Part shown: positions 1,901 to 38,337 of the stretch, one piece after another
Layout of the letters: each line of letters starts with the position of its first letter
Numbering within the stretch: the stretch's first letter is position 1
Assembly (NCBI GenBank): GCA_963812605.1
Contig: CAWEWF010000004.1
Span: 32,001-96,000, forward strand
Direction of reading: 5' to 3'
DNA from: an uncultured Verrucomicrobiae bacterium
GTDB taxonomy: Bacteria > Verrucomicrobiota > Verrucomicrobiia > Palsa-1439
Length of the DNA stretch: 64,000 bases
Position numbers and translations under genes: made by a program
Notes under the pieces: model-generated
What the model was told of the DNA's origin: nothing
Database searches by the model: none
The model's input: only the letters and a program-made list of their open reading frames with translations

Positions 1901-2380
1901 ATGCGCAAAATTAACACGAAGGACATCGCTGAGGTGTCCTGGTCGTCGCCCAAGGGAAAGTTCGTCGGCGCTGGCAAGGAGGTCTCGGAGGAATTGGGCC
2001 GCAAACCGCAATCGACCGACCTCAAGGAGCGGCACCCTTTCGATGTCGAAATCTGCCGCATCCCGCCGGGCAAGACCCCCTACCCCTATCACTCCCACAG
2101 CGCGCAATGGGAGTTTTACCACGTGATCTCCGGCAAAGGCATCGTCCGCCACAAGGACGGAACGACCGCCATTGAAACCGGCGACGCTTTCCTCTTCCAC
2201 CCCGGCGAACCCCATCAGATTACCAATGACGGCTCCGAAGATCTCATCCTCTACGTCGTCGCGGACAATCCGATTGGCGAATCCTATTACTACCCCGACA
2301 GCAGGAAATGGAGCGTCGCTTCACCCGAGCGCCGAATCATCCGCTCCGATGCCCTCGACTACTACGACGGCGAGGAGTGA
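1901..2380 (+). CDS. Cupin-domain protein
   Basis: PYHSHSAQWEFYHVISG and GDAFLFHPGEPHQITN cupin motifs; start moved to ATG 1901. Confidence 0.9.
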   Translation: MRKINTKDIAEVSWSSPKGKFVGAGKEVSEELGRKPQSTDLKERHPFDVEICRIPPGKTPYPYHSHSAQWEFYHVISGKGIVRHKDGTTAIETGDAFLFHPGEPHQITNDGSEDLILYVVADNPIGESYYYPDSRKWSVASPERRIIRSDALDYYDGEE

Positions 2381-2396
2381 GCCCGTCCCAACTTCT

Positions 2397-3707
2397 TCAG
2401 CGATACGCGATCGCAGCTTCCAGCGCCGGGTCGCGTCCCGCAAGCACGTTCTGCCACGAAGTCGGCGTCGCAATATCCGGCAGACGTGAAGGAGGGTCAT
2501 CCCCGGTGGTAATCTTGAAGTGTTTGGTGGAATAACGCACCTGCAACTTGGAATTCGGCAGTTCCAATACGCGAACGTCACCATAACCGTTGGGTTTGCC
2601 CCCGGTGGGTTCGCCAATCAGGATGGCCTGGAAATGGAACCGCTTCGCATCGTCGGCAAAACTGTTATGAAATTGCTCCGCCACCCATTCCCCGGAGGAA
2701 AAGGTCGACGGTCCAATCAGCACAAAGAGATGGCCGGTCGCATTAATGGCGGGATTGGATGAGACGGCTTCCAGCAACGGCCGCACAACGTCAGAGTTCC
2801 CTCCTCCGTTATAACGGACATCGATCACCAAACGGCCCACCGAGTGAGCGCCAATAAATGCAAACGTCTCTTTTACGAATTCCTGGAAAGACTGTTTCGG
2901 ATCGTCTTCGCACACGTTGTATTGAAGGAACAATGTCTGCGAATCCGGCAAATACTCGCGCCAGTAAAACGCTGTTGGATTACGGCGACTGAGCCGCGTC
3001 GGCAGCTCCAGGGCCTCTGTGACCGTGACTCGTCCGTTTGCGTTTGTGCTCGCGCTCCAGTCCGATGGCGAGACAGAAAGAGACCAGACATTGGTTCCCG
3101 CATCCGCAAAGGCAAGTTCGAGAGATCCATTCGACGCGGCCTGCAGGTGCTGCAATAATTCAGCCGACATCATGTACTCGGGACTTTGTTCCCGCAGCCA
3201 GGTTTCATTTTCATGTGCAATGTAGGGGGCAAGATTTGTCAGCAGTTGCTCCGGCGTCATTTTACCGATTCGAACCACGCGCTTCCCCAACGCCCGCCGA
3301 TACTCGGGCGCAGCAGCAATCACATAGCATCCGTCGGAATACCAGCGCAGCCACAATGGATACCGCTGAAAGGCGAGCGCGCCGGAGGTCGGCAGCGCGA
3401 GTCGCGTGTGCGAAACTCCGGCGGCCGCAACCAACCGTAGCAGGCGAATCACGATCTCCGTGTCGGAAAGTTGTGCGACAGAGTTTTTGATCTGCGCGAT
3501 CTCGCTCTGGAACGTTTCCTTCGGAACAAGCTTGTAAAAGTCCTTGTGCTTCTCCGGCAGGTTCGTCCCCAGGAAATCGAGGTCCTGACGCCAGTGCTCT
3601 TCGCGAACAGCGTTGTTCGTGTACGTTTGCGCTTGAATCAGTGGTCCCGAAACGCCAACGGCCGCAGAGACAACCAGAGGAATTAACTTTATGAATCTGG
3701 TTTGCAT
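2397..3707 (-). CDS. Secreted S41-family-like peptidase
   Basis: Signal peptide; LVIDVRYNGGG, TFSSG and IGEPTGG motifs. Confidence 0.8.
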   Translation of the reverse strand: MQTRFIKLIPLVVSAAVGVSGPLIQAQTYTNNAVREEHWRQDLDFLGTNLPEKHKDFYKLVPKETFQSEIAQIKNSVAQLSDTEIVIRLLRLVAAAGVSHTRLALPTSGALAFQRYPLWLRWYSDGCYVIAAAPEYRRALGKRVVRIGKMTPEQLLTNLAPYIAHENETWLREQSPEYMMSAELLQHLQAASNGSLELAFADAGTNVWSLSVSPSDWSASTNANGRVTVTEALELPTRLSRRNPTAFYWREYLPDSQTLFLQYNVCEDDPKQSFQEFVKETFAFIGAHSVGRLVIDVRYNGGGNSDVVRPLLEAVSSNPAINATGHLFVLIGPSTFSSGEWVAEQFHNSFADDAKRFHFQAILIGEPTGGKPNGYGDVRVLELPNSKLQVRYSTKHFKITTGDDPPSRLPDIATPTSWQNVLAGRDPALEAAIAYR

Positions 3708-3791
3708 AAGCCAAGTGCCTCCGAATTAGCCGGGCGAGTGCGGCGATTCAAGACTAATCTGGGAAACGGCTTGCACTTCCTTTGCTCTGCT

Positions 3792-3844
3792 GACAGCAAC
3801 AAATCCGCTCCAACGCCCTCGACTATTACGACGGCGAAGAGTGA
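3792..3844 (+). pseudogene. Diverged copy of the cupin 3' end (DSNK//IRSNALDYYDGEE*)
   Basis: 3803-3844 matches 2339-2380 at 38/42 nt including the stop; 3792-3802 matches ~2297-2308. Confidence 0.9.
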
Positions 3845-3868
3845 ACAGGCTCCGTAGTTTATCACTAA

Positions 3869-3962
3869 TTGGAGGGCGAGCCTCTCGGCAAGCCGCACCT
3901 CTCGATAATTTCCTCTCCCCATTTCCAAGCCGATTGTAGGGCGAGCGCGTCGCTTGCCGTCA
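3869..3962. repeat. Two REP-like palindromes (GGAGGGCGAGCCTCTCGGCAAGCC; GTAGGGCGAGCGCGTCGCTTGCCGTCA)
   Basis: GTAG-led hairpin; the second is nearly identical to 38334-38360. Confidence 0.75.
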
Positions 3963-11721: not shown

Positions 11722-12658
11722 ATGGGCGACACTTCACTTCTGCCTTCGTCGGACACCGACGCGCTGTTGCGCACGATTGGCAACACGCCGCTCATCCCGC
11801 TCCTGCGCATCGGCCGGGAATTCCCCGGCGTCCGCATTTTCGCCAAGGCCGAGTGGTTTAATCCCGGCGGCTCGGTGAAAGACCGCGCGGCTTACCGCAT
11901 GATTCGCGCCGCCGAGTTGTCGGGCCGGCTCACGCCGGGCAGAATCATCCTCGACGCCACGAGCGGCAATACCGGTATCGCCTACGCGATGATCGCCGCG
12001 CGGCGCGGGTACCGCTGCAAATTACTGATGCCCGCCAATGCCAGCACCGAACGCAAGAAACTCCTCCAGGCGTATGGCGCTGAGGTTGTTCTCACGGACC
12101 CCAGCGAAGGCAGCGACGGCGCGTTCTTCGCAGGCGCAGCGTCTTTACAAGGAGCAACCGGATCTCTACGTGTATCCCGACCAGTACGGGAACACTGAAA
12201 ACCCGCGCGCTCACTACGAAACCACCGGCCCCGAGATCATCGAGCAGACCGCCGGCAAGATTACGCATTTCCTCGCCGGTCTCGGCACGAGCGGTACCAT
12301 GATGGGCACGGGGAAGCGGCTCCGCGAGTTTAACCGCGACATCAAGCTCGTTGCCGTCCAGCCCGATGGCCCGTTTCACGGACTCGAAGGACTCAAGCAC
12401 ATGGAAACGACGTCGCACATCCCCGATTTATACGACGCCAAAGTTCCCGACCAAATCGTCGGTATCTCCACGGAAGCCGCGCAGCAAATGGCCAAACGCC
12501 TGACCCACGAAGAGGGCCTTTATGTCGGCGTGAGCGCCGGCGCCGCCATTTGCGCCGCGCTGAAGATCGCGGCCACGATTCAGGAAGGCGCGCTCGTCGC
12601 CATTTGTCCCGACGCCGGCAACCGTTACCAAAGCGAGAAATTCTGGGAGACTGCATGA
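11722..12658 (+). CDS. PLP-dependent cysteine synthase (CysM-like); frameshift near 12130
   Basis: IGNTPL, KAEWFNPGGSVKDR, ATSGNTG in one frame; QYGN..N..AHYETTGPEI and GLGTSGT in the next. Confidence 0.9.
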
Positions 12659-12673
12659 ACGCACACAGTCAAG

Positions 12674-12770
12674 CCCCTCACCCTAACCCTCTCCCTCAAG
12701 GGGAGAGGGGACCGGCGAGCAGACAGCAGTTTCCTCTCCCCTCCGGGGGAGAGGATCAAGGTGAGGGGGG
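12674..12770. repeat. Inverted pair of CCCTCACCCTAACCCTCTCCC...GGGAGAGGG palindromic units
   Basis: Two hairpin units in opposite orientation forming a larger inverted repeat. Confidence 0.8.
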
Positions 12771-12788
12771 CGGAGCGGTTCGTTGCAC

Positions 12789-13193
12789 ATGAAACTCTCT
12801 CAACAACTCCTGCATCAAATCCGCCAACACCTCGAAGCGGGGTATCCGAACGAGGCTTGCGGCGTGATGCTGGGGCAAAATGGGATCGTCAGCGAAGTGG
12901 TTTCCGCGGACAATCAGCGCACCGATAGCGCCCGCAATAGGTATCTCATCGATCCGCTGATCTACCTGAAGATCGAGCGGGAGGCCGACAAGCGCGGGTT
13001 GCAAGTGCTCGGCATTTATCATTCGCATCCCGATGTCGCGGCCCGGCCATCGCAGTTTGACCTCGATCACGCGTGGCCCGATTTTTCGTACCTGATCATT
13101 TCGGTCGTCAAAGGCAAAGCGATGGAATCGAATTCCTGGCGGTTGCGGGACGACCGTTCGGCCTTCGACCAGGAGAACATCGAAGTTTTATAA
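12789..13193 (+). CDS. JAMM/MPN+ (M67, Mec-like) metallopeptidase
   Basis: YPNEACG and YHSHPD...PSQFD JAMM motif; lies in a sulfur-carrier cluster. Confidence 0.92.
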   Translation: MKLSQQLLHQIRQHLEAGYPNEACGVMLGQNGIVSEVVSADNQRTDSARNRYLIDPLIYLKIEREADKRGLQVLGIYHSHPDVAARPSQFDLDHAWPDFSYLIISVVKGKAMESNSWRLRDDRSAFDQENIEVL

Positions 13194-13210
13194 AGGCAAC
13201 AGCCGTCTCA

Positions 13211-14269
13211 ATGAGATCTATGGGCAACCACGCGTCCGGTTTTGATTGGGCTGACGGGCTGCACCGATTCAAATTATTCAAACGGCGTTTTGGTCACGGC
13301 CGGGTGCCTGCATACTGGGAAGACGACCCTATTCTGGCCTGGTGGGCAGCCAGGCTGCGCACGCGTTTGGATCGCTTGACACAGGAACAGATCAGGCAAT
13401 TGTATGGCCTAGGTTTTTATTTTGGGTCGGTGCTGACGGCGTGGGTGGGACGTTACTTGGATTTGGCCAAATACCGGACCAGGAACGGTCATTGCAACGT
13501 GACCGAAAGAGTAGACATGTCCCTAGGGCGCTGGGTGCAACATCAACGTGCCCTCAAACATCGCCTGGATGCGCAACGTCTCAAACTGCTAAACCGCCTC
13601 GGATTCGACTGGTCTCCCATCAACACGCTTTGGGGAGAGAGGGTGGCAGAGCTACACACATTTAAGCAAGGACATGGCCATTGCCGCGTGCCACACCATT
13701 ACCCGGAGTATCCCCATCTGGGAATTTGGGTGAGCAACGTGCGCAGGAAGCGCGATAAGCTTTCTCCGCTACGCCGCCGCCAACTGGATCGGATGGGCCT
13801 AAACTGGGCGCCGCTCGCCTCCTCGTGGGAGGCGCGGGTTCAGGAAGCGGTAATGTGGCGAAAGCTTCACGGCAACTGCCAACCACCGTTCGAGTCTCCA
13901 TTAGGGCGCTGGCTGGCCAAGCGACGGGCAGCCTTTGCGGCCGGGAAGCTCAGTCAGCAGCGCAAGCGGCGATTGGAAAAGCTGGGGGTTGAGCTTAGAC
14001 CATTCCAGTCAAGGTGGGAAAGGCGGTTTACAGAACTCAAAGCCTACAGGGCGCGCCATGGTCACTGCAATGTGCCCCGATCCTGCCCAAAGAATCCTGC
14101 TTTGGGTTTTTGGGTAAGCAAGCAACGCTACTTCAAAGATCGTCTCACTCGCAAGCAGATCGTCCGCCTCAACCAACTCGGCTTCCGCTGGCGGATCCGC
14201 CCGCCGAGACCGCCGCGCGGCCGTCACAGTTCGACCTCGGTCACGCGTGGCCCGATTTTTCGTACCTGA
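13211..14269 (+). CDS. Helicase-associated (HA) domain repeat protein
   Basis: About five repeats of W...L..F/Y...GHCxVP...LG.WV..QR...L..LGF.W; no helicase motifs. Confidence 0.8.
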   Translation: MRSMGNHASGFDWADGLHRFKLFKRRFGHGRVPAYWEDDPILAWWAARLRTRLDRLTQEQIRQLYGLGFYFGSVLTAWVGRYLDLAKYRTRNGHCNVTERVDMSLGRWVQHQRALKHRLDAQRLKLLNRLGFDWSPINTLWGERVAELHTFKQGHGHCRVPHHYPEYPHLGIWVSNVRRKRDKLSPLRRRQLDRMGLNWAPLASSWEARVQEAVMWRKLHGNCQPPFESPLGRWLAKRRAAFAAGKLSQQRKRRLEKLGVELRPFQSRWERRFTELKAYRARHGHCNVPRSCPKNPALGFWVSKQRYFKDRLTRKQIVRLNQLGFRWRIRPPRPPRGRHSSTSVTRGPIFRT

Positions 14270-14370
14270 TCATTTCAGTCGTCAAGGGCAAGGCTGTGGA
14301 GTCGAATTCCTGGCGGCTGCGGGACGACCGTTCGGCGTTCGACCAAGAGGCTGTTGAAATTCTCGCGTAG
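14212..14370 (+). pseudogene. Diverged copy 1 of the JAMM peptidase 3' end
   Basis: AARPSQFDLGHAWPDFSYLIISVVKGKAVESNSWRLRDDRSAFDQEAVEILA* versus 13038-13193. Confidence 0.95.
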
Positions 14371-14408
14371 ATTATCACCAGCGCCTACGTAGATCCGTGC
14401 GGCGATTA

Positions 14409-14635
14409 TCAACGCAGATTCCGGGAAAATTCCTCCGGGGACAGTCGGATATCCTTGATAATCTGTCGGAGAAGAAACGGCGAAACGTCTCGACCCGCAT
14501 GAAAGGGAACAGTCGTTCCGCGACCGTCAGCATGACGATACTGCTTGTGCGAACCGCGCTGACGGACCTCGACGAACCCAAGTCTTTCAGGACCTTTTCC
14601 ACCTCACGCGCCTTCAGTACCGGGAGCCGGGCCAT
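14409..14635 (-). CDS. hicA: HicA toxin (frameshift in a G run near 14578)
   Basis: Restoring one G gives MARLPVLKAREVEKVLKDLGFVEVRQRGSHKQYRHADGRGTTVPFH. Confidence 0.85.
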
Positions 14636-14641
14636 GCATGC

Positions 14642-14848
14642 CTAGACGCTGATGGCTTGCGTTCCGATGAACTCAGCTTCGAGCTGCGGCTCGCCGTCCT
14701 CCAGAAGCATCCCAACAACCTCCTTCAGATTGTCACGCAACTCTTCAAGTGTCGCGCCCTGAGAGTGTGCACCGGGAAACCCGGGAATATATCCCACGAA
14801 CAGGTTCGTCTCCGGGTCACGTTCGACAACGGCGGTGAAGTTTCTCAT
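14642..14848 (-). CDS. hicB: HicB antitoxin
   Basis: FVGYIPGFPGAHSQGATLEELRDNLKE motif; leaderless promoter upstream. Confidence 0.9.
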   Translation of the reverse strand: MRNFTAVVERDPETNLFVGYIPGFPGAHSQGATLEELRDNLKEVVGMLLEDGEPQLEAEFIGTQAISV

Positions 14849-14854
14849 GCCCAG

Positions 14855-14883
14855 AAAGTACCGTTCCACAAGGGAAACGTCAA
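14855..14883 (-). promoter_or_regulatory. sigma70-like promoter of hicBA (leaderless)
   Basis: TTGACG-17-TACTTT, 6 nt before ATG. Confidence 0.7.
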
Positions 14884-14899
14884 CCCCACCGCCAAGTTA

Positions 14900-14928
14900 A
14901 AGAGGCTGTTGAAATTCTGGGGCGATAG
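14900..14928 (+). pseudogene. Copy 2 of the JAMM peptidase 3' end (EAVEILGR*)
   Basis: 19-nt exact repeat AAGAGGCTGTTGAAATTCT of 14345-14363, followed by an in-frame TAG. Confidence 0.7.
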
Positions 14929-14960
14929 GCTAGACTGGGTCTTGCGGGTAATAGCGAATT

Positions 14961-15019
14961 GTAGGGCAAGCGGCCCGCTTGCCACTTATTAATAGCGCCA
15001 ACCGGGCCGGTTGGCCTAC
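14961..15019. repeat. Inverted REP pair (REPIN-like)
   Basis: GTAGGGCAAGCGGCCCGCTTGCC ... GCCAACCGGGCCGGTTGGCCTAC. Confidence 0.8.
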
Positions 15020-15049
15020 AAATCGTGTTTGCAAAAAATGGAGAGAACG

Positions 15050-16537
15050 ATGGCTATTAAAGTCACAATTCCAACGGCCTTGCGTCGCTTTGCCAACGGA
15101 CAGACGACGGTCGAGGTGGCCGGCGTAACGATCAACGAGGTGCTCGGCAACCTGACCGCAGAGCATGCCCAGTTGCGGCCCCATCTCTACAGCGAGGACG
15201 GCAAGCTGCGGAATTTCGTGCGCGTGTACGTCAATGACGAGGACATTCGCGCCCGGGGCGACAATGCGCCCGTCAACGAAGGCGACGAGATTTCCATCGT
15301 GCCGTCGATTGCGGGTGGCAACCTTGCCAAACTTGAGCCGATCATCAAAGATCGCGCGAAGCTGACCAATGACGATATCAAGCGGTATTCGCGACACCTG
15401 ATCCTGCCGGAAGTCGGCGTCGAGGGCCAGGAGCGGCTCAAGGCGGCGAAAGTATTGCTCATCGGCTCGGGTGGACTTGGTTCGCCGATCGCGCTATATC
15501 TGACGGCGGCGGGAATTGGGACGATTGGGATGGTCGAGTTCGACACGGTCGATTTCAGCAATCTCCAGCGGCAGATCATTCATTTCACGGGCGACGTGGG
15601 GAAACACAAGCTCCAGAGCGCCGAGGAAAAACTCAAGGCGATCAACCCGAACCTCAATTTCATCCCCCACCCCGTCAAGCTGACGAGCGAGAACGCGCTC
15701 GACATTATCAAGGACTATGACCTCGTCCTCGACGGCACGGACAACTTCCCGACGCGTTATTTGGTCAATGACGCGTGCGTGATGCTCAAAAAGCCGAATG
15801 TGTACGGCTCGATCTTCCGCTGGGAAGGCATGGCCAGCGTGTTCGCGCCGCACCTGGGTGGTCCCTGCTATCGTTGCTGGTATCCCGAACCGCCGCCGCC
15901 GGGGCTCGTTCCGAGTTGCGCGGAGGGCGGCGTGCTCGGCGTCATCTGCGGCATCATTGGCAACATCCAGGCGAACGAAGCCGTCAAGCTCATCATCGGC
16001 AAGGGCAAACCGCTCATGGGCCGGTTGCTGCGGTTTGACGCGATGGACATGAGCTTCCGCGAGTACAAAATTCCGCGCGACCCGAATTGTCCCGTGTGCG
16101 GCAAGAATCCGACCGTAACCGAACTAATTGACTACAACCAATTCTGCGGCATCGGCCGCGGAGAGGACGAAGGTTCCTCAGGAGATTCCATCGTGGAAAA
16201 AGTTGACACGGGCCTCGGCCCCGACGATATCAGCGTCGAGACGCTCAAACAAATGCGCGACCGCAAAGACGATTTTGTCCTCGTCGATGTCCGCAATCCC
16301 GACGAGTTCGAGATTTGCGTCATCGACGGTTCGGTGAAACTTCCCTTACCGGAGTTGCCGCAGCGGTTTCAGGAACTGCCGAAGGACAAGCTCGTGGTCC
16401 TGCACTGCAAGTCCGGTGGCCGTAGCGGCCGCGCGGTGAAATTCCTCAAGACGCAGGGCTACAGTAAGGTCAAGAACGTCGCCGGCGGCATCAATGCCTG
16501 GGCCGAACGCATCGACCCGGACGTGCCGCAGTATTAA
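15050..16537 (+). CDS. moeB: MoaD/ThiS-like sulfur carrier fused to MoeB/MoeZ adenylyltransferase and rhodanese
   Basis: Ubiquitin-like domain ending IVPSIAGG, then RYSRH, GSGGLG, SNLQRQ, CYRC, SCAEGG, and rhodanese HCKSGGRS. Confidence 0.93.
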   Translation: MAIKVTIPTALRRFANGQTTVEVAGVTINEVLGNLTAEHAQLRPHLYSEDGKLRNFVRVYVNDEDIRARGDNAPVNEGDEISIVPSIAGGNLAKLEPIIKDRAKLTNDDIKRYSRHLILPEVGVEGQERLKAAKVLLIGSGGLGSPIALYLTAAGIGTIGMVEFDTVDFSNLQRQIIHFTGDVGKHKLQSAEEKLKAINPNLNFIPHPVKLTSENALDIIKDYDLVLDGTDNFPTRYLVNDACVMLKKPNVYGSIFRWEGMASVFAPHLGGPCYRCWYPEPPPPGLVPSCAEGGVLGVICGIIGNIQANEAVKLIIGKGKPLMGRLLRFDAMDMSFREYKIPRDPNCPVCGKNPTVTELIDYNQFCGIGRGEDEGSSGDSIVEKVDTGLGPDDISVETLKQMRDRKDDFVLVDVRNPDEFEICVIDGSVKLPLPELPQRFQELPKDKLVVLHCKSGGRSGRAVKFLKTQGYSKVKNVAGGINAWAERIDPDVPQY

Positions 16538-16619
16538 GCGGCGGTTCAGGGTTCTCGGTTCTAGGTTGTAGAATCCTACGACGTACTTCCGGTCAATGGC
16601 CTCTGGGAGCGCGGACGAT

Positions 16620-17303
16620 TTAATCTCTAGCTGTTTTGATCAATTTCTTAAGCCACCATGGTGACCACAATGTCCAATTGGAACGCCCAAGAAGAAGCCC
16701 CGTGATGATGAAAATCATCCAGTTCGCGTAAAACGCCCACCACGAAAGATCCAGCCGATCGCTGAGGAAAAACCCTGTATCGCTTCTGTGAAACACAAAC
16801 AGACGGACCAACTTCACCATGATTGTGCCAATTAAACCAAGGCTGCTGATCCATAACAAAGTCCATTTGGTATGCCAACGGGCAAAGCCAATAACAAGGC
16901 CACTGATGGTAAAAGTCGTAAAAGTAACGTAATTCGGAAGCCAGACCGCCCGCGACGGATGTGAAAGCGAATCCAAGCCGCTCGTATGCCAGATGAATGA
17001 CGTGCCCAAGCTCAACATCGGTGTCATCACCAAACCGAGGACGCCCGTCCAAAACAACGACCATTGGGGTAATACACACGCCATTCCGCAGATTTTCTTG
17101 AACTCGACCTTGAGTTCGTCGGCATGACCCATTCGCTGAACCGAATTCTCAAAGGCTTGTGGCGGATTTGTCCCCGCTTTCATCTGAAGCTCAATTTCTT
17201 CCCGCAAATGAATTTCCAGTTCTTCCAGCGGCACGGGCGTTTTGATTCCGGCGGCGAGCATTTGTTTTCGCCAATCAGCAATTGATTGTTCGAGATCAAA
17301 CAT
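16620..17303 (-). CDS. Permease-prefix-domain membrane protein (PadR partner)
   Basis: MFDLEQSIADWR...LEELEIHLREEI N-terminus plus TM segments. Confidence 0.75.
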   Translation of the reverse strand: MFDLEQSIADWRKQMLAAGIKTPVPLEELEIHLREEIELQMKAGTNPPQAFENSVQRMGHADELKVEFKKICGMACVLPQWSLFWTGVLGLVMTPMLSLGTSFIWHTSGLDSLSHPSRAVWLPNYVTFTTFTISGLVIGFARWHTKWTLLWISSLGLIGTIMVKLVRLFVFHRSDTGFFLSDRLDLSWWAFYANWMIFIITGLLLGRSNWTLWSPWWLKKLIKTARD

Positions 17304-17628
17304 ATTGCTCCTTTTTCAAGCCGGCCAAAACGGAATGCACCAGCGACCATTGTTCGTGATGCTTGGCCATCGCCGTTTTGCCGTCCTTTTTGAGCAAGTA
17401 ATATTTCCGCTTCCGCCCGGTCTCGCTTTCCGCCCATCGCGACTTGATCAAGCCCCGGTGTTCCATGCGGTGCAGCACCGGGTACAGCATGCCGTCCGTC
17501 CAGTTTAGTTTGCCATCCGAGCGCTCTTTGACTTCTTGAATGATGGCGTAACCGTAACTCTCGCCCTTGGCGAGCAGCGACAAAATCAGCGGTTCAGCCG
17601 ATGCGGCGACCAGTTCTTTGCGAATCAT
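17296..17628 (-). CDS. PadR family transcriptional regulator
   Basis: ESYGYAI, GMLYPVLHRME and RKRKYY motifs. Confidence 0.92.
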   Translation of the reverse strand: MIRKELVAASAEPLILSLLAKGESYGYAIIQEVKERSDGKLNWTDGMLYPVLHRMEHRGLIKSRWAESETGRKRKYYLLKKDGKTAMAKHHEQWSLVHSVLAGLKKEQYV

Positions 17629-17634
17629 AGAGAC

Positions 17635-17663
17635 ACGATACATAGACGTTATATGTATGTCAA
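17635..17663 (-). promoter_or_regulatory. Leaderless promoter of padR with inverted repeat in the spacer (possible operator)
   Basis: TTGACA-17-TATCGT, 6 nt before ATG; TACATA...TATGTA palindrome. Confidence 0.7.
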
Positions 17664-17676: not shown

Positions 17677-17718
17677 GGCTCGGTGAAACTCCTGTTACCG
17701 GAGTTGCCACAGTACTAG
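17677..17718 (+). pseudogene. moeB 3'-end remnant 1 (GSVKLLLPELPQY*)
   Basis: Matches 16328-16363 (GSVKLPLPELPQ) fused to the terminal QY-stop. Confidence 0.8.
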
Positions 17719-17760: not shown

Positions 17761-18393
17761 CTACACGGGCTGCGGGGTGTAGCGAAGATACGGCTTCACT
17801 TTGCGAACGCCTTTGGGAAATAATTTCTCCGCATCCGTGTCGGACACCGCTGTCACGACGATGCAGTCCTGCCCTTGTTTCCAGTCCGCCGGCGTGGCCA
17901 GCTTGTGACGAGCCGTTAATTGCAGCGAATCGATCACCCGCAGGATTTCGGCAAAATTGCGGCCCGTGCTGGCCGGGTACGTCAGGGTCAATTTGATCTT
18001 CTTGTCGGGGCCAATGACAAACACCGACCGCACCGTGGCCTTGTCGTCCGCGTTCGGATGAATCATGTCATACGCCGTCGCGACCTGGCGTTTTTCATCC
18101 GCGATCACCGGGAAGTTCATCGTGCAGGCTTGCGTTTCATTGATGTCCTCGATCCAGTCGTGGTGCTTTTCCAGCGGGTCCACGCTGACCGCCATCACCT
18201 TGACATTCCGCTTTTCAAATTCGGTCTTGATCTTGGCCACCGTTCCGAGTTCGGTGGTGCAAACGGGAGTGAAATCGGCCGGATGCGAGAACAGGACGCC
18301 CCAGGAATCGCCCAGCCATCGGTGAAACTCAATCATCCCTTCGGTGGTGGGGGCTATAAAATTGGGAGCAACATCGCCTAATCGTAATGCCAT
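17761..18393 (-). CDS. 1-Cys peroxiredoxin (Prx6 family)
   Basis: FSHPADFTPVCTTE, YPASTGRNF and ATPADW motifs. Confidence 0.95.
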   Translation of the reverse strand: MALRLGDVAPNFIAPTTEGMIEFHRWLGDSWGVLFSHPADFTPVCTTELGTVAKIKTEFEKRNVKVMAVSVDPLEKHHDWIEDINETQACTMNFPVIADEKRQVATAYDMIHPNADDKATVRSVFVIGPDKKIKLTLTYPASTGRNFAEILRVIDSLQLTARHKLATPADWKQGQDCIVVTAVSDTDAEKLFPKGVRKVKPYLRYTPQPV

Positions 18394-18500
18394 AGTGGTA
18401 CCCTTCTCTTGTCGGACATTTCTGGATTGCTTACGTCCCGCGACTCTCGCTCGCCACATAGTATCCCCTCGCACAGTGCTTTCAAGTTTTTTGTGGGCCA

Positions 18501-18587
18501 CCGAAAGACATGCTCGTGGTCCTGCACTGCCATTCTGGTGACCGCAGTACTAGGGCACGGTTTTGGGTTCGCGGTTCACGGTTCACG
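18501..18587 (+). pseudogene. moeB 3'-end remnant 2 (PKDMLVVLHCHSG//PQY*) plus 3'-UTR homolog
   Basis: Matches 16379-16418, then CCGCAGTACTAG, then GGTTC repeats like 16540-16566. Confidence 0.85.
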
Positions 18588-18620: not shown

Positions 18621-18726
18621 AAACGGCGGCTGGCTCGTCAATGGCCGTGTCCAGATGCGCCCGCATGTTCCTGCCACGATTCTGTGCGCTTGCCGGCATC
18701 TGGCCGCGTTGGCATACTCCGCGTCA

Positions 18727-19305
18727 ATGGCTTCGGAGAAAGACTTGGCGATTTCGGTTGAACGGCTCGGCGGTCTCATCTACGAGATTCGCGGCCAGAA
18801 GGTGATGCTTGACCGCGATTTGGCGATCGTCTATGGCGTCGCAACCCGAGATCTGAATAAGGCCGTGAAACGCAACCGCGACCGGTTCCCGGCGGATTTC
18901 GCATTTCAGCTTACCCGGCAAGAGGTTGCAGACTTGAAGTTCCAAATTGGAACATCAAGTTCGCAGCACGGTGGCCGGCGCAAACCGCCATGGGCGTTCA
19001 CCGAGCACGGCGCGATCATGGCCGCCAACGTGCTCAACAGCCCACGCGCCGCGCAGATGAGCGTCTTCGTAGTCCGCGCGTTCGTGAAGATGCGCGCGGT
19101 GCTATCAGACAACCGGGAACTCGCCGGCAAACTCGCTGCCTTGGAGAAGGAGCTTAAGGACCGCCTCGGCGTTCACGAAGCCGCCATCGTCACGATTCTC
19201 CAGCGCGTCATGGACATCATCGACCCGCCCGCCTTGCCGGAGCCGCCGAAGAAGGGCATCGGATTTCAGGTGAAGCAAGCCAAAACACGCTATCTGGTCC
19301 GCTAG
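18727..19305 (+). CDS. ORF6N (KilA-N-like) domain protein
   Basis: IRGQKVMLDRDLA..YGV, AVKRNRDRFPADF, AFTEHGA and VRAF motifs. Confidence 0.9.
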   Translation: MASEKDLAISVERLGGLIYEIRGQKVMLDRDLAIVYGVATRDLNKAVKRNRDRFPADFAFQLTRQEVADLKFQIGTSSSQHGGRRKPPWAFTEHGAIMAANVLNSPRAAQMSVFVVRAFVKMRAVLSDNRELAGKLAALEKELKDRLGVHEAAIVTILQRVMDIIDPPALPEPPKKGIGFQVKQAKTRYLVR

Positions 19306-19322
19306 CACGACTCGGGGCAAGT

Positions 19323-19391
19323 ACCGGGGGAATCGACGCCTGGGCCGAACGCATCGACCCGAACGTCCCGCAGTACTGAGGCGGTTGCAGG
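19323..19391 (+). pseudogene. moeB 3'-end remnant 3 (TGGIDAWAERIDPNVPQY*)
   Basis: Matches 16481-16537 (AGGINAWAERIDPDVPQY*) and the following GGCGGTT.CAGG. Confidence 0.95.
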
Positions 19392-19415
19392 AAACATGGT
19401 GCACCTTAACAATAT

Positions 19416-25326: not shown

Positions 25327-25343
25327 AACAGTATATTGCCAAC

Positions 25344-27538: not shown

Positions 27539-30500
27539 TCAGGGTTGAAGACGAATGCGGTAATAACGCGACGGGACATTGGTGGCGGCACCGCTATCGA
27601 GATAGTTGGTGGTGGCGTCGCCGCTGCCTGAGATGATAATCAACGGGCTCAGATCCAGGAAGTTCGTCGCATAGGAACCGTCCGGCAGACCGGTGGCTGC
27701 CTGCACCACGTTGGTGTGCCCGCCGGCCGTTGTCCAGGTTACCAGCACGTCGCTGCTCTGCTGCACCACCGAGGTAACCCGGAACGCCGAGGCCGGGTTG
27801 GTTGGGTTGATGCCCGCCAAGAACTGGTTGAGGTTATCCATCCCTTTGCCCAACGGATCAGCGTTCGCCGCTGCGGCCGGATTGGTGGTGCTGCCGAAAT
27901 ACTGTACCTGCCAGGCCTGGAATGGCGTCCATACCGTGACGCAATTCACCTGCGTGTTGGTGCCCGATCCGGCGGGTCCGCTGACGATTTCCATCACGCT
28001 ATAGACGCCGGCGGCGTTGTAGGTGTAGAGCACGCTGTTGGTCGCGATATTGGTCGTGCCGCCATCGCCAAAACTCCAGAACCAATTGGTGACACTGCCG
28101 GTTGAGGTGTCGGTGAACGTTACGGCCAGGGGGACAACGCCGCTGGCCGGATTGTTGGTGAAACTCGCCACGGGCGGCGAAGTCGACACCGTGATGTAAT
28201 TCGCCTGCGTATTGGTGCTCGATCCGCCAGGACCGCTGACGATTTCCTGCACGCTGTAGACTCCGGCGGCGTTGTAGGTATAGAGCACGGTGTTCGTCGC
28301 AAGATTGGTCGTGCCGCCATCGCCAAAGCTCCAGAACCAATTGGTGATGGTGCCGGCTGATGTGTCGTTGAACGTCACGGCCAGCGGGGAAACGCCGTTG
28401 GTCGGGCTTCCGCTGAAACTGGCCACGGGCGTACCGAGCAAATCGTTATAAACGGTCCCGAAGTTGTCCCCGACGACGACTTTGCCGATCAGGCCGCCGG
28501 CGCTGGGGATCGTGCCGCTGTCCAACTGGGAGATCGCGATGGAACCCACCGAGGAGGCCGCGCCGCTCGTGATGATGTTCTTGGCATACGGCGTCTGGTT
28601 TCCGATGTTCCCGCTGGTTGGATTCACGAACGCGATCACATTGGTGAAACCCGCCACCGCCTCGACGATCACGCGATACTGGACCCCGTAGCTAAGGCCA
28701 GTGGTGCCAAAAGTGTAGCCGTCTGTCGGAGCGGGCGTGATACGGACACCCAGCACGTAATTCGTTTTGGCCGCATTGGGTGACTCGGCGGCCAGACGGA
28801 ACTCGGCGGTACCGGTGCCGTTGCCGCTCGTATACAGCGCCACGAAGTACGGAACACCGTTGGTGTTCGGCGCGTTGGTCACGATCAGGGTCAGGCCATA
28901 GAACACGGCTTCGTTGGTCAGCGTGAAGTTTTTGTACGGGGTTTGGTTATTGGCGGTCAGCCCGCCGGTAAATCCCGCCTGGCCTCCGCTGATCTGCACC
29001 GGCACACTGGATATCGCACCCAATTGGGTCCAGCTTTGTTGGCCGACGAGATTACCGGAAGCTGAACGTGCTGAAGTTGTCGTAGAACCCGAAGTTACCG
29101 ATGTTGAGAGACACAGCGCGCGTCGTATTGCCAGCGCCGTTGGTGGTGTTGGTAAATCCAATCGTGTCGGAGTAGCCCCCGGTCGCCAGGCTGTTGGCGT
29201 TGGCGTTGAGAGAGGCGGTGACGTTTATGCCAGTATCCGAGGCCAACGTCCCATTTGTGGCGGAAAGCGTCAACCAGGTGGAAGAGTTGTTTGCCGTCCA
29301 GTTCACCGACGCTCCTCCCGCATTGCTTACCGCGTAGGTCTGGCTGATCGGGTTGAAGGGTCCGCCCGGCGGACCCCCGGAGCTGAATCCTCCCGTAGGA
29401 GCGACGATCAACTGCCCGGACGCGTTGCTGATGTTCAGATTGACAGGTTCCGTCGTGTTGCCGGAGCCATTGGATGTGGCAAACACAACCGTGTCCGAAT
29501 AAGAGCCACTCAGCAGTGTATTCGCGTTGGCATTGAGAGAAACGGTGATGTTGGTGGTAGCGGTTGGCGCCAGTGTGCCGCTGGTCGCGGAAATAGTCAG
29601 CCAGTTGAAGGTGTTGGTCACCGACCAAACCATTGTCACGCCACCCGTATTGCTCAGTGTATATGTCTGGCTGGTAGGACTAAATGGTCCGCCCGCGCCA
29701 CCGCTGGAGCTAAATCCGGACGCCGGGCTGACAACGAGTTGCGCCCCGAAGATGAATAGATCGCTGAGATCAGTCGCGTTGATCGCATCACCCAGCGCGG
29801 CCCCACGTTGAAAATCTCCTGCATCGTCAGCAAGGTGGAGCTGTGCGTGTAGTGGAGGGTATTGGAATAGCCGCCGCCCTTGGCCAGTGGCGACATCACG
29901 ATCATGCCGATCGGACCGTCCTCGCCCTCTCCTTCATCCCATGTGACAAAGATAACGCCGTTATTGCTGTACGCCTGGGAACCCACGATCTCGGCGACCG
30001 TGTTGGAGAGCCAGGTGTCACCCGCCGTCAGCAGCGCATTGCCGGTGAGGCATCCCGTATTGCCGTGCATGTCGTCGCAGAGGTTCGGGGTGATCCAAAC
30101 ATACCGCGCAACCGTGTTGCTCTGGAGATCCCCCGCCAATTCGGTAAACGGTCGCACATCGGAGATGCAGTACGTCGAGCCGGTGTTGTTCGTGTTCGTG
30201 ACGTCATCGAAATGCACCATGGGATTGTGCTTCGCCACGTATTGGCCGCTATCCGTAAGTGGGCACGTGGTTCCAGTGATGCCCTCTTGGAAGGAAGTCC
30301 AGGAGATTCCGGCGTTCTTGAGCAGCGTGACCAGGTGGTTGGTGGTGCTCTCGTGGTAGGTCAAGGCGTCGCCATCAGCGAGGATGCCAAAGTTCGTGCC
30401 CGCCTCCAGCCACAGGTAGTTCGGCAAACTCGGGTGGTTGCCCGGAGGATTGTAATACTGCAAGGTATACGAGGACTTCGGTAGCAGCCCGTTGTTGATG

Positions 30501-31825
30501 TACGGGCACGCCGCATTGCCGCTGATCGAAGCCCAGTTCTGGTTTTCCTCCAGGATGATGAAGACGGTTTGGATGCTTTGCGCCGCCTGTACGACGTTGT
30601 AATCCCCGACGATAGGATAATGATCGCTCCCGTTGAAGCTGTTGCCGCTGCCGGTTTCTACCAGATCGGTATTAACGGTCGCGGCGCTCGGGACCGTGTT
30701 GGTGAGATCATCCAGGGAGTGGTTGCTGGGACTCGTTGGCTCACCGCCCAACGGTGTCGTACCGTTGTTGCCAAAGACCTCGAACGCATACGGATATTGC
30801 GCCGACGGAAAGTTTGAGCTGTCAAACGGGTCTGACCTGTCCGGCGCGAGTTGCACTCCGCCCTGGCTGTTGTAAGCGCCGAACATCGGGGCATTGGGCA
30901 GTTGAATGTCAATGCGCGAGCTCATCGCGAAGGATCCTTCCGTCGCATCGTCATAGAGATAGGGGGCATTGTCCCCTGAAACGTTAGCCCAAGTAGTGGT
31001 GGTCGGCGGCGTGGTCTTTGACGTGGGATCGTATCCCTGCGTCTGGTTGGTGTTGGCCCAGATCGCGCTGGTGTCACTCCAGTTGATGCCATCGGAGGTG
31101 GTCTGCCCCGTGAGGCATTTGTAGGCGTTCTCCCCGCTCCCGTTGAACAGATTCCAATCCCCGCCATAAAGTATATGCGCCCCGGCTGGCAGGTTGTATT
31201 TCGCGTCGCTGCGAACTTCCTGCGCCTCGGCGTAGCGCGCGTCTCCGACCGAGTCGTCGCTCGTGCTCCGCGCGTGGCTGACGTAAAAGTAAAAATCGTC
31301 GTTCGTCCCGAGGCCGACGGGCCGGAGACGATACACCATCGGCGCGCGGTCGGGGCCGTTCACTCCGCCACCGGGGGAATGGGCCGCCGTGTAACTGCCG
31401 TTCGACTGCAAGAGCACGTTCTGCCCGGTCAGCAGCGCCCGCGCCGACACGACCTGCACCGTGTTCGTCCGGTAAATCAACCCGTCGGGCCCGCCGCCGG
31501 TATTTGGATCAGTAGTCGGATCGAACGCGTAAGTTCCTGCGCCGTAAATAGCGTTGAGCTGCGCGACAAAGTTTGCCAGCGTCGTCGAATTCAACTCTTC
31601 ACAGCTCATCACATCAACGGGCTGCGCGTTGCTGCCAATATGGTGCAGTCCGATCCCTTGAACCACCGTCGGCAAGCTATGCGCTGCGCCGGTGATGTTG
31701 TTGTCGCTGCTCTGGTCGGCGCAATCGATATTATAGGAGACAATGCGAAGCGTCCGGCCCCACGCTCCGGAGGCACAAACCCCGATTCCCAACAAAACCG
31801 CACTGATGCATCGTCTTGAATACAT
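27539..31825 (-). CDS. Large secreted multidomain protein: EEP-like nuclease/phosphatase + phosphoesterase + BACON-like + PKD (two frameshifts)
   Basis: YNI...GDWN...SDHYP; IILEEN...HPSLPNYL...YVAKHNP; PKD WFWSFGDG repeats; three overlapping ORFs join near 29800 and 29060. Confidence 0.75.
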
Positions 31826-32050
31826 TGATACTTACCCTCATTCCCTACTAACAGTTTATACCTGGCAAACAGAGTTTGACGCGACGTTCTGATATTATTG
31901 GCAGACACCCCAAAAAAAGTCAAGCTATCTGAGTCGGGGGTAGTGCATTCGTGCGGTTTCCGGTGACCGCGGTGACGCGGCAATCGCCTCGTCTTTAGTG
32001 CCTTTTCCCTTCATCCCGTTAAATCCTTTTCCCTTGCGGAGAGCAGATCG

Positions 32051-36484: not shown

Positions 36485-36556
36485 TTTTCGGCCAGTCTCC
36501 CAAAATAGGCTTCCGCTGGCTGATTCGCTGGTTACAATGCCGCGAACGGAGACGCC

Positions 36557-37840
36557 ATGGACCTGATTCTTCGCAACGCGCGCGTACGCGGACACGACCA
36601 CAACGTCGATATCGCTGTCAACGATGGCCTTATCGCCAGAATCGCCCCGAAGATCACCGCGCGCCCGCGTCAGGTTATCGATTGCGCCAGTAAACTCGTC
36701 TCGCCGCCGTTCACCGATATCCATGTCCACCTCGACGCCGCACTCACCGTGGGACAACCGCGCTTCAACCAGAGCGGCACGCTCATCGAAGGCATCGAGA
36801 TTTGGGCGGAACGCAAGCGGACGCTCACGTTCGACGACGTGAAGCGCCGCGCCACGCTTGCTGTGAAATGGGAACTCGCCCATGGCGTCACGCGCATCCG
36901 CAGCCATGTCGATGTCTGCGATCCGCAACTCACCGCCGTCAAGGCGCTGCTTGAGGTGAAGAAAGAATTCGCGGGCCTCGTGGATATTCAACTCGTCGCG
37001 TTTCCGCAGGATGGCATCTACGCGTTTCCCAACGGCGAGCGGCTCATGGACCAGGCGATGGAACTCGGCTGCGACATCGTCGGCGGCATCCCGCATCATG
37101 AAATGACCCGCGAGGACGGTGTGGCCGATGTGAAGTTCGCCTGCGATCTCGCGCAGCAATATCACAAGCCGCTCGACCTCCATATCGACGAGACCGATGA
37201 CCCGAATTCGCGCTTCACGGAAGTATTAGCCGCCGAAACCATCAAACGCGGCCTCGGCGGACGCGTTACCGCCAGTCACACCACCTCCATGCACAGCGTC
37301 GACAATGCCTACGCTTTCAAACTCATTCGCCTCATTAAACGCGCCGGCCTGCACATGGTTACCAATCCGTGCGACAACAGCGTCCTTCAGGGCCGCTTTG
37401 ACACCTACCCCAAACGCCGCGGCCACACGCGCGTGAAAGAACTGCTCGCCGCCGGCGTCAATGTCGGCATCGGCCACGACTCGATCATGGATCCGTGGTA
37501 TCCGCTCGGCATTGGCGATCCCTTGCAAGTCGCTTTCGTCTGGATCCATTACGGCCAAATGAGCGGCGCCAACGAAATCCCGCAAGTGTGGGACATGATC
37601 ACGAAAAATCCGGCAAAGGCCTTCGGTGCCACCGACAAAGATTACGGCCTCATCGTTGGCAACCCCGCCGACCTGATTCTCCTCGACGCCGCCACCGAAT
37701 TCGACGCCCTCCGCCGCATCGCCCCCCGCCTGTTGGTAATGCGCCGCGGCCAAATCGTAGCCCGCACCACCCCGAGTGAAACCGTCCTCTGTCCGAAAGG
37801 GTGGAAGAAGGAAGTGATTGATTTCACGGTGCACGGATGA
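36557..37840 (+). CDS. codA: Cytosine deaminase
   Basis: HVHLD, NQSGTL.EGI..W, AFPQDG, HIDETDD and DSIMDPWYPLG motifs. Confidence 0.93.
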   Translation: MDLILRNARVRGHDHNVDIAVNDGLIARIAPKITARPRQVIDCASKLVSPPFTDIHVHLDAALTVGQPRFNQSGTLIEGIEIWAERKRTLTFDDVKRRATLAVKWELAHGVTRIRSHVDVCDPQLTAVKALLEVKKEFAGLVDIQLVAFPQDGIYAFPNGERLMDQAMELGCDIVGGIPHHEMTREDGVADVKFACDLAQQYHKPLDLHIDETDDPNSRFTEVLAAETIKRGLGGRVTASHTTSMHSVDNAYAFKLIRLIKRAGLHMVTNPCDNSVLQGRFDTYPKRRGHTRVKELLAAGVNVGIGHDSIMDPWYPLGIGDPLQVAFVWIHYGQMSGANEIPQVWDMITKNPAKAFGATDKDYGLIVGNPADLILLDAATEFDALRRIAPRLLVMRRGQIVARTTPSETVLCPKGWKKEVIDFTVHG

Positions 37841-38022
37841 AGGTTCGCGAAGTCCTCAGATTATTACGTGACGACGGTTGGTACCTGGCGCGGCAGCGCG
37901 GAAGCCACCAACAATATAAGCATCCCACAAAACGCGGGCTGGTCACGGTCGCCGGCAAACCGAACGACGACCTTGCGCCCGGCACATTAAACAGTATACT
38001 AAAGCAAGGGGAGCTAAAATGA
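37837..38022 (+). CDS. hicA: HicA toxin
   Basis: DGWYLARQRGSHQQYKHP; ATGA overlap with codA. Confidence 0.9.
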   Translation: MKVREVLRLLRDDGWYLARQRGSHQQYKHPTKRGLVTVAGKPNDDLAPGTLNSILKQGELK

Positions 38023-38234
38023 CGAAGTATCTCATCGTTGTCGAAAAGACATCAACGGGCTATTCAGCCTTCTCGCCCGATTTGCCCGGCTGCATTGCCA
38101 CGGGCGCAACGCACGAGGAAGTTGAAGGAACAATGCGCGAGGCGGTTCAATTCCATCTCGACGGTCTCCGCGAAGAAGGTCTGGACATTCCCTTACCTCA
38201 CAGCTACTCGACGTACTGCGAACTCCCCGCCTAA
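38019..38234 (+). CDS. hicB: HicB antitoxin
   Basis: YSAFSPDLPGCIATG..EE....REA..HL.GL. Confidence 0.9.
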   Translation: MTKYLIVVEKTSTGYSAFSPDLPGCIATGATHEEVEGTMREAVQFHLDGLREEGLDIPLPHSYSTYCELPA

Positions 38235-38241
38235 CGCAGGC

Positions 38242-38337
38242 GGCCAAATCGTCGCCCGCACCACCCCGAGCGAAACCGTCCTGTGTCCGAAGGGCTGGAA
38301 GAAGGAAGTGATTACGTTCGCCCCGGCACATCGGTAG
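38242..38337 (+). pseudogene. Diverged copy of the codA 3' end
   Basis: GQIVARTTPSETVLCPKGWKKEVI(TFAPAHR*) versus 37748-37840. Confidence 0.95.

Follow-up and report, generated by a model that had tools for sequence, protein, structure and literature searches.

Unrelated cargo between intact genes and diverged copies of their 3′ ends in a genome of uncultured Verrucomicrobiae

We analyzed a 64,000-nt stretch of DNA from an uncultured Verrucomicrobiae bacterium (the window: positions 32,001–96,000 of the 426-kb contig C4 in GenBank assembly GCA_963812605.1, here G000, a 4.17-Mb metagenome-assembled genome of 15 contigs with 90% completeness and 2.4% contamination). Intact genes in the window are followed by unrelated cargo and then by a diverged copy of the same gene's 3′ end with a stop codon, which we call a tail. 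A preliminary description, made from the letters of the window, had noted this layout behind four genes; it is real and recurs at 31 loci in the genome, where the tails are old copies of the last 25–240 nt of the host gene. The pattern looks like the scar left when genes were gained through recombination with related species, rather than like the work of a dedicated mobile element. On balance, and with considerable doubt, we read the tails as resident 3′ ends that were pushed downstream when accessory DNA of another lineage of the same genus recombined in.

According to this displacement account, incoming DNA carrying an allele of the host gene, its own 3′ end, and cargo would pair with the resident gene by RecA-type homologous recombination, which would serve as the anchor, and the far, non-homologous end would be joined illegitimately within the last ~25–240 nt of the resident gene (homology-facilitated illegitimate recombination). 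The imported allele would provide the working 3′ end, leaving the resident end as a silent tail behind the cargo. Because the imported end would keep the gene intact, the event would survive selection; selection for an intact gene would produce the polarity described below, and inter-species donors would account for allele-level divergence. Repeated events at one gene would stack units, with the oldest furthest downstream, and whole units could later pass between species by plain homologous exchange. Deletions between short repeats would whittle tails and cargo, and microhomology deletions together with further one-sided events (such as the joining of a segment X to hicB in the relative G012) would erode and reshuffle the arrays. 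We infer the anchor with its illegitimate join, the identity of the imported copy, and the way in which the DNA entered. No more than ordinary recombination is required for the layout: a homologous anchor with an illegitimate join, and then homologous exchange. As we discuss below, several types of evidence bear on this account and on its rivals.

First, tails are numerous in the genome and lie mostly on one side of their genes. Every G000 gene of at least 300 nt was compared on both strands with 6 kb on each side by ungapped matching (10-mer seed, score of at least 40), and a fragment was classed as tail-type if it reached within 30 nt of the stop codon, after removal of whole-gene paralogues and of matches inside other large genes. 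Open reading frames (ORFs; 3906 in G000) were called with a simple home-made scorer, and the genome-wide counts share the crudeness of these calls. Outside large genes, tail-type partial copies were found 31 times downstream and 5 times upstream; the downstream loci, set against 3328 G000 genes of at least 100 aa, amount to ~1 gene in 100. The in-frame stop fell at exactly the live-gene offset in 20 of the 31 loci, and within 3 nt of it for the JAMM and codA genes described below. Direct gene fragments within 6 kb numbered 135 downstream and 110 upstream, with only 10 and 15 in inverted orientation. Head-type partial copies outside large genes were divided between upstream (13) and downstream (10) positions; a mirror process at 5′ ends was considered and rejected, as many of the upstream copies were paralogue N-termini, internal repeats, or mis-called overlapping ORFs. 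Additional host genes with tails include a pheA-type chorismate mutase/prephenate dehydratase, a DEAD helicase, an ABC transporter, and dehydrogenases.

Doubtful members of the 31 are C9:5041 (internal repeats), C14:311936 (spacer of 29 nt), two perfect matches of 26–27 nt, one 75% match, and C15:3862, a second instance of C14:166250; without them, 25 robust loci remain. Because the seeds were ungapped, the scan missed tails that are short or contain gaps, JAMM tail 2 being one. A segment of 1.9 kb (host 3′ part, DUF6883/DUF4926 pair, and tail) occurs twice in G000, at C15:3262–6559 and C14:164910–167392, with 89% identity, and the C15 copy, on a 29-kb contig, either represents genuine paralogy or belongs to a related strain whose contig was binned with G000. 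The presence of the DUF6883/DUF4926 pair behind two genes was evaluated as a sign of precise cassette ends and discarded, since C14:166250 and C15:3862 represent a single locus in two copies (89% identity) and thus one event.

The same scan found 2 tail-type downstream copies in 0.66 Mb of G009, a member of the same genus, none in 0.93 Mb of G035, G033, and G028, which belong to other families of the class, and 1 in 0.48 Mb of moeB-centred loci from other phyla, compared with 31 in the 4.17 Mb of G000. For the 1.41 Mb outside the genus, 10.5 tails would be expected at the G000 rate and 1 was observed (Poisson P(≤1) ~3e-4). An excess of tails within the genus is likely but not settled, given small samples and crude gene calls.

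Second, the tails differ from the live genes as alleles of working genes do. Over all 31 loci, tail and live copy differed at 300 of 2736 aligned nt, distributed 57/47/196 over the three codon positions, which bears out the earlier impression of mostly synonymous change. For the 25 robust loci, the ratio of nonsynonymous to synonymous differences (pN/pS) was 0.126 (bootstrap 0.08–0.18) at a pS of 0.32, and comparison of whole moeB and codA genes with those of other species of the genus gave a pN/pS of 0.05–0.08 at a pS of 0.36–0.43. By our reasoning, a drifting copy made on the spot should show a pN/pS of ~0.5. The tails thus appear to have diverged as working genes and to be allele-like rather than decayed duplicates, and their description as orthologous alleles agrees with the rounded pN/pS of 0.13 and pS of 0.32 and with the codA ends discussed next. 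A diversity-generating retroelement was also considered and rejected: the differences lie at third codon positions, and no reverse transcriptase was noticed among the cargo scanned.

The extreme 3′ ends of two genes in the window carry this comparison further. The live codA-like amidohydrolase gene (36557–37840, + strand; Pfam Amidohydro_3, E 1e-50) is followed by a cargo of hicA (37837–38022; HicA_toxin, E 7e-23) and hicB (38019–38234; HicB_lk_antitox, E 1.3e-10), together spanning 37837–38234 on the + strand, and then by a tail (38240–38337, +), in which positions 38240–38313 match the live repeat copy (R1, 37746–37819) at 69/74 nt (E 1.3e-24) before a diverged end with its stop at 38337. 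The live gene ends in EVIDFTVHG and the tail in EVITFAPAHR, each followed by the stop; ends of the IDF type are live in G006 and five other relatives, and ends of the ITF.P type are live in G012 and four others (including G002, G015, and G011). The codA tail is also 71/74 identical to live codA of G004, compared with 69/74 to its own live gene. The host TGA overlaps the ATG of the first cargo gene as ATGA at 37837–37840 (codA/hicA) and likewise at C5:160496, C7:12369, and C5:338980, which suggests that such cargo may be co-transcribed and translationally coupled with the host gene.

The live JAMM (Prok-JAB) peptidase gene (12783–13193, +; Pfam Prok-JAB, E 1.4e-25; R1, 13037–13175) is followed by an HA-domain repeat protein (13073–14269, +; Pfam HA, E 1.2e-71), whose ORF starts inside JAMM and ends, in another frame, inside JAMM tail 1 (14211–14370, +; stop at 14370). 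Positions 14211–14349 of this tail match R1 at 124/139 nt (self-BLAST E 2.5e-46). The tail ends in QEAVEILA, the type used by live genes of relatives in the genus, whereas the last 18 nt of live JAMM (QENIEVL) are of a non-genus type found in more distant relatives. For codA and JAMM, live and tail copies therefore represent different natural allele classes, as their end types differ and both are live elsewhere. Identity to relatives was tried as a guide to the native copy and abandoned: R1 and R2, its counterpart in the tail, are about equally close to live alleles of relatives and equally allele-like, and only end types discriminate. The divergence between live ends and tails, as large as that between species of the genus, suggests that the incoming DNA carried a homologue of the anchor gene.

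These data bear directly on whether tails could be target duplications of 25–240 nt, made on the spot, with the copies diverging later or the live gene being overwritten by recombination. Insertion with long target duplication was reportedly first described by Nobusato et al. in 2000. In the later study by Furuta, Abe & Kobayashi (2010, PMC2853133), restriction-modification blocks of <20 kb are flanked by direct repeats of 30–420 bp, the repeat is present once in the empty-site genome, mobility genes are absent, some repeats lie over the 3′ end of a gene, and most of the species are naturally competent. Our layout and the empty sites described below match this class, with direct repeats of >30 bp and a single copy in the empty site for codA and JAMM (repeats of 42–139 nt by self-BLAST), and a few live/tail pairs are nearly identical (C6:57407, 97%; C8:32802, 97%; C6:367716, 98%). 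By contrast, the published class has restriction-modification cargo, repeats that are mostly 90–100% identical and interpreted as target duplication, and a handful of cases per genome comparison, whereas here the cargo is mixed, the repeats are interspecies alleles, there are about 25–31 loci per genome, and the arrays are stacked. Copies made in place would be near-identical at birth; the pooled pS and pN/pS are allele-like and unlike those of one drifting copy, and the extreme ends of JAMM and codA belong to differing classes with live representatives of both. We consider duplication on the spot very unlikely.

Third, relatives, which are 80–90% identical to G000 in live moeB and codA, contain empty sites, shared junctions, and intermediate states, as the preliminary description's idea of variable cargo presence and order implied. 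In G006, codA abuts the conserved downstream gene. The next core gene after moeB, at 25343 in the window, directly abuts moeB in L028, L034, and L040, and the distance between the two ranges from 0 to ~5 kb among relatives. JAMM abuts the moeB-like gene in the 22 of 23 related loci in which both genes were aligned (L029 had no JAMM match), and the HA-repeat stretch is therefore an insert.

The gene called moeB is a ThiS-ThiF-rhodanese gene (15011–16537, +; Pfam ThiF, E 5e-79, plus Rhodanese and ThiS), and a moeB-like gene is present in 17/17 genomes of the genus. Behind it stand three units in the window. Cargo 1 (16620–17643, −; Pfam) comprises a PadR regulator (17296–17643) and a 227-aa ORF without a family, and is followed by tail 1 (17677–17718, +; 16328–16363 vs 17677–17712, self-BLAST E 5e-4). 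Cargo 2 is a peroxiredoxin (17761–18501, −; Pfam AhpC-TSA, E 8e-31), followed by tail 2 (18501–18553, +; 16379–16425 vs 18501–18547, self-BLAST E 3e-7) and by a GGTTC-rich stretch that resembles the 3′ flank of live moeB. Cargo 3 is an ORF6N-domain protein (18655–19305, +; Pfam ORF6N, E 7e-32), followed by tail 3 (19324–19380, +), which comprises the last 56 nt and the stop (vs 16482–16538, self-BLAST E 1e-12). Tails 1 and 2 do end in a stop, as first described, but they are internally deleted and not simple copies: in tail 1, gene positions −210 to −174 are joined at TGCCGCAG/TGCCACAG to the terminal TAC TAG, and in tail 2, positions −159 to −112 are joined to TAC TAG at CCGYAG. Live moeB has three CCGYAG sites, and each of these tails runs to one of the inner sites and then jumps to CAG TAC TAG. 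Tails 1 and 2 are full tails that later lost 100–165 nt by microhomology deletion, with the stop kept in each.

Relatives show the moeB array at lower occupancy. G012 has moeB-ORF6N-tail, G006 has moeB-X-peroxiredoxin-tail-ORF6N′, and G000 has three units, a series of increasing length. The ORF6N gene with tail 3 is collinear with G012/L013 (88.8% identity over 716 nt), the junction between the peroxiredoxin and its tail is the same in G000 and G006, and the junction between hicB and its tail is the same in G000 and G012. Stacking recurs just upstream of the window, where a DEAD-box helicase gene (C4:29203–31888, L156) carries two stacked units, each with a tail of ~72 nt and its stop in place. 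Together with the moeB states and the five lpxC-fabZ tails of G004 described below, these units agree with the proposal that older units lie further downstream.

Such recurrence also bears on the possibility that a strain-mixed metagenome led the assembler to place two alleles in series. G000 is a metagenome-assembled genome, and C15 holds the second, 89% identical copy of C14:166250, possibly from another strain. The stretch itself was found in four sequencing runs of one study as short, low-depth unitigs, none of which crosses a whole array; one is identical to 19084–19430 (ORF6N, tail 3, and downstream sequence) and another crosses moeB tail 1 and the next cargo, also with no differences, though these unitigs may stem from the source study. 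Two joints listed from these runs, each in one contig with a shorter flank of <30 nt, carry no weight. The ORF6N/tail and hicB/tail junctions recur in G012 and the peroxiredoxin/tail junction in G006, which are independent assemblies of other species, and an assembler could not invent a junction from cargo into mid-gene with no read behind it. We give assembly artefact hardly any credence.

Fourth, no recombinase or site that would define a mobile element was found with the tails. G000 has 12 PF00589 matches, none of them on contig C4 and, in a test for IntI-type integrases that took in all 31 tail loci, none closer than 10 kb to a tail. Contig C4 and the 10 kb around tail loci are free of tyrosine recombinases, serine recombinases, and Y1 transposases (the screen did not extend to DDE transposases), and the reported absence of an integrase or transposase in the window extends in these terms to the whole contig. 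Elsewhere, G000 encodes about 10 tyrosine recombinases, 2 serine recombinases, and 4 Y1-transposase (RAYT/IS200-like) genes. Pfam detected no recombinase among ~10 cargo ORFs of the window, 30 from the rest of G000 (out of 52 of at least 60 aa listed there), and 10 from G004 and G006, although many of these ORFs matched no family. Comparison of cargo ORFs with one another revealed no common or recurrent family and one weak pair over 29 aa. Cargo with a family includes toxin-antitoxin-like pairs, a small GIY-YIG nuclease, regulators, redox enzymes, and surface proteins; most match nothing. Pfam upheld most gene names given at first (cupin, Prok-JAB, ThiS-ThiF-rhodanese, amidohydrolase, a weak S41, HA, PadR, peroxiredoxin, ORF6N, and HicA plus HicB behind codA), but for the second pair named HicAB they supported only the HicB-like gene.

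Junctions were equally free of a common signature. Cargo edges shared no 8-mer beyond random controls (no dedicated search for attC structures was made), and repeat starts of different genes had no common motif. Homology at right-hand junctions begins abruptly, and several cargo ORFs are truncated where the tail begins or continue across the junction into it; abrupt and without a motif, these junctions look illegitimate as far as their sequences can tell. In one case, a GIY-YIG nuclease ORF of 113 aa (C6:329227–329568, L166) reads into the tail and uses its stop codon. An exact run of at least 25 nt is missing from 30 of 42 repeat pairs, and several pairs have only 10–14 nt. This shortage makes a crossover inside the repeat unlikely and fits an anchor further up the gene, although later divergence weakens the argument. 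These results do not support the integron-like route proposed at first, taken strictly: integrons have an adjacent IntI-type recombinase, a shared edge site, and cassettes with defined ends, whereas here there is no integrase, no conserved edge site, and no defined cassette end, and cargo ORFs cross the junctions.

A related possibility is site-specific integration in trans, in which satellites that lack an integrase (like CIMEs, pseudo-SCC elements, or tycheposon cargo) would use att sites in gene 3′ ends and carry a replacement 3′ end. Islands of integrases that target gene or tRNA 3′ ends (cis-mobilizable elements, CIMEs; staphylococcal cassette chromosome, SCC, composites; and tycheposons) restore that end, leave a partial copy of the target at the far side, and can form tandem arrays that include integrase-less units. 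Targeting and restoring 3′ ends is thus textbook behavior for integrases, tandem accretion is known, recombinases are encoded elsewhere in the genome, and tail starts cluster both in the DEAD helicase and in lpxC-fabZ, where 9/11 fall at a palindrome within a span of 18 nt. Such islands depend on a cognate integrase and on an att core that is conserved, however, and neither was found here: the ~25 host genes have no common repeat-start sequence, cargo edges have no shared motif, moeB tails start at −210, −159, and −56, cargo genes are cut at the junction, and no recombinase was present in the examined cargo of G000, G004, and G006 or within 10 kb. Many pairs also have no identical core, which counts against membership in this group, although later divergence could have eroded a short one. 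We regard integration in trans as quite unlikely.

Units that recur as wholes raise another possibility. The hicB gene with its tail, and the ORF6N gene with its tail, are seen in differing downstream contexts. A circle containing the 3′ part of a gene and cargo could enter by a single homologous crossover of the Campbell type, reversibly, making the unit a recombinase-free mobile cassette. This scheme yields the gene-cargo-tail layout exactly, as well as stacking, would explain why tail length recurs within a gene and why hicB and ORF6N move with their tails, and has a parallel in the two-step circle proposed for rhs tips (PMC2935791). The crossover would have to fall in short repeats that are 83–97% identical, however, and the scarcity of exact runs (30/42 pairs with none of at least 25 nt; 11 nt at most for the cupin gene) argues against it. 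The short, low-depth unitigs of the public runs showed no circular junction. We judge the circle scheme unlikely, if less so than integration in trans.

Several observations weigh against our preferred account of displacement by incoming DNA of a related lineage. Arrays behind the lpxC-fabZ fusion gene were found in four genomes, with five tails in G004 (C81, 1267–6051, L228), four in G012 (C36, L229), and one each in G006 (C8, L230) and G000 (C14:575417–579122, L177), and some units of cargo plus tail are common to genomes; throughout the genus, this essential gene acts as a hot spot for docking. Of these 11 tails, nine start between −85 and −102, at a GC-rich palindrome, GCCGCGCCCGCGGC, in the coding sequence, and the two DEAD-helicase tails start at −73 and −71. 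Clustered starts are not predicted by a random illegitimate join; common descent of junctions explains part of the lpxC-fabZ clustering, because three of the clustered tails have ~50 nt upstream in common. The codA order is a further difficulty: G000 has codA-hicA-hicB-tail-X, and G012, G011, and G015 have codA-X-hicB-(tail), so that the G000 order can be reached only through repeated events or one more crossover, located within the 98-nt tail. Sliding identity of live moeB and codA against relatives showed no switch at the repeat, these relatives being too distant to give a signal in breakpoint mapping, and the view that the live end is the import draws on end types at only two loci. Finally, when homology-facilitated illegitimate recombination takes place in laboratory experiments, recipient DNA is usually lost and no overlapping tail remains.

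Palindromes are also found next to tails. A GC-rich palindrome resembling repetitive extragenic palindromic (REP) sequences abuts the TAG of the codA tail (38338–38356), and a second follows JAMM tail 2 (14965–14983); the sequence has 5 matches, counting both strands, vs 0.10 expected. The family, with a consensus of about GTAGGGC[GA]AGCG..CCGCTTGCC, often starts at a gene's TAG and has 66 pattern matches in the genome. REP-like palindromes follow 5 of 42 tails (within ~130 nt) and 13 of 3328 genes (within ~100 nt), and are thus ~30-fold commoner after tails.

A bolder proposal, which we advance tentatively and consider rather doubtful, is that the displaced tail is a working part of a recombinase-free mobile unit and not a mere scar. 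Because cargo plus tail is flanked by pieces of one core gene, such a unit could home by homologous recombination into any relative with that gene, and it could also leave by recombination between the two repeats. In a stronger form, some unrecognized activity may act at structures in gene 3′ ends, and the arrays may be a new acquisition system with ordinary genes as docking sites; the lpxC-fabZ starts at a palindrome, the DEAD-helicase starts 2 nt apart, and the enrichment of REP-like palindromes after tails are the grounds for this idea. The codA order, the clustered starts, and the REP-like palindromes leave room for a mechanism that depends on homology arms or on structures.

Part of the architecture has precedents, and the initial claim that nothing like it had been described was too strong: modular displacement in rhs and T6SS loci, as well as recombinase-free insertions flanked by repeats, are in print. 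In Jackson et al. (2009, PMC2935791), the old 3′ end of an rhs gene is shifted downstream by an incoming module, and Kirchberger et al. (2017, PMC5361080) describe sequential displacement of effector-immunity modules of type VI secretion systems (T6SS) and propose homology-facilitated illegitimate recombination. These systems resemble ours in that a module enters via the conserved part of a gene and brings a new 3′ end and in that repetition builds arrays; no integrase is known for them, and illegitimate recombination of this kind or a circle plus homologous recombination has been proposed. They differ in their parts: a polymorphic toxin acts as host, the tip that is displaced encodes another toxin domain, and the toxin's immunity gene forms the cargo. 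In our genome, by contrast, the hosts are metabolic or housekeeping genes (lpxC-fabZ, pheA-type, ThiF-family, amidohydrolase, and DEAD helicase) rather than polymorphic toxins, what is displaced is an allele of the same function, and the cargo has no relation to its host. A more general published proposal has homology-assisted illegitimate recombination as the source of small variable segments. A full-text literature search, whose reach excluded most subscription journals and supplements, did not find this architecture genome-wide at ordinary genes; in this literature, the density of tails at ordinary housekeeping genes was without a match.

Homology-facilitated illegitimate recombination itself offers the anchor and join that our account of displaced resident ends calls for. 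Its occurrence in transformable bacteria was reportedly described by de Vries & Wackernagel in 2002, Prudhomme et al. in 2002, and Meier & Wackernagel in 2003. Like the layout here, it combines one homologous anchor with an illegitimate join and uses no element-encoded enzyme; it differs in being a rare laboratory phenomenon, and an overlapping recipient tail, genome-wide and in nature, is not what it is cited for. ComEC, DprA, and Ku are present in G000, although competence itself cannot be read from sequence. The ComEC Competence domain (C10:147033–147879) is in two adjacent pieces, 4 nt apart and in different frames, which could be a frameshift, either real or an assembly error.

The remaining features of the window are as follows. 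The live cupin gene (1808–2380, +; Pfam Cupin_2, E 4e-16), whose last 42 nt (2339–2380) are repeat R1, is followed by a 436-aa protein with a weak S41 peptidase match (2397–3707, −; Pfam Peptidase_S41, E 7e-8), for which a search of 17 genomes of the genus returned no match, and by a tail (3803–3844, +) that is 38/42 identical to the live end, with TGA at the same place and a longest exact run of 11 nt. Behind JAMM tail 1 stand a HicB/UPF0150-like gene (14642–14869) and an 86-aa partner (14375–14635) that matched no family in Pfam, together spanning 14375–14869 on the − strand (Pfam), and then JAMM tail 2 (14900–14928, +). Six of the seven tails listed at the outset were recovered by repeat finding or self-BLAST and this last one by eye; it is present, but what it copies is the final ~20 nt of tail 1 (19 bases are identical, and a stop follows) and not the end of the live gene, for local alignment with live JAMM gave no copy of the live end and only a chance 8-nt match elsewhere.

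The window also contains features that touch these arrays less closely. A PALP (cysteine-synthase-like) gene, JAMM, and the ThiS-ThiF-rhodanese fusion form a cluster (11722–16537) that is conserved in relatives and, from its gene content, looks like a sulfur-carrier pathway of the CysO/MoaD type with the carrier fused to its activating enzyme. At 29094–29717, the last 64 nt of a 723-aa gene (29654–31825, −) and ~230 nt downstream are repeated in tandem (67% identity, 297 nt), which may be an older or different kind of tail and had escaped the preliminary description. Two tandem units of 250 nt with 84% identity (27927–28431) lie inside a 540-aa gene (27539–29161, −).

The gain of small genes by bacteria at hot spots with no obvious mobile elements is largely inferred and not observed. 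Because arrays of the kind described here keep displaced alleles, the order of acquisitions can be read from them; they also show that alleles were exchanged over distances like those between species of the genus and that docking takes place at essential genes, lpxC-fabZ among them. Homology-anchored illegitimate recombination is known mainly from laboratory transformation and toxin loci. If the pattern holds in pangenome data, uncultured soil Verrucomicrobia, which are abundant, would be shown to gain genes routinely by this process; a core gene followed by a tail that has an in-frame stop would be a simple signature to look for in any genome, and annotators could treat such fragments as real, and as neither assembly errors nor random pseudogenes.

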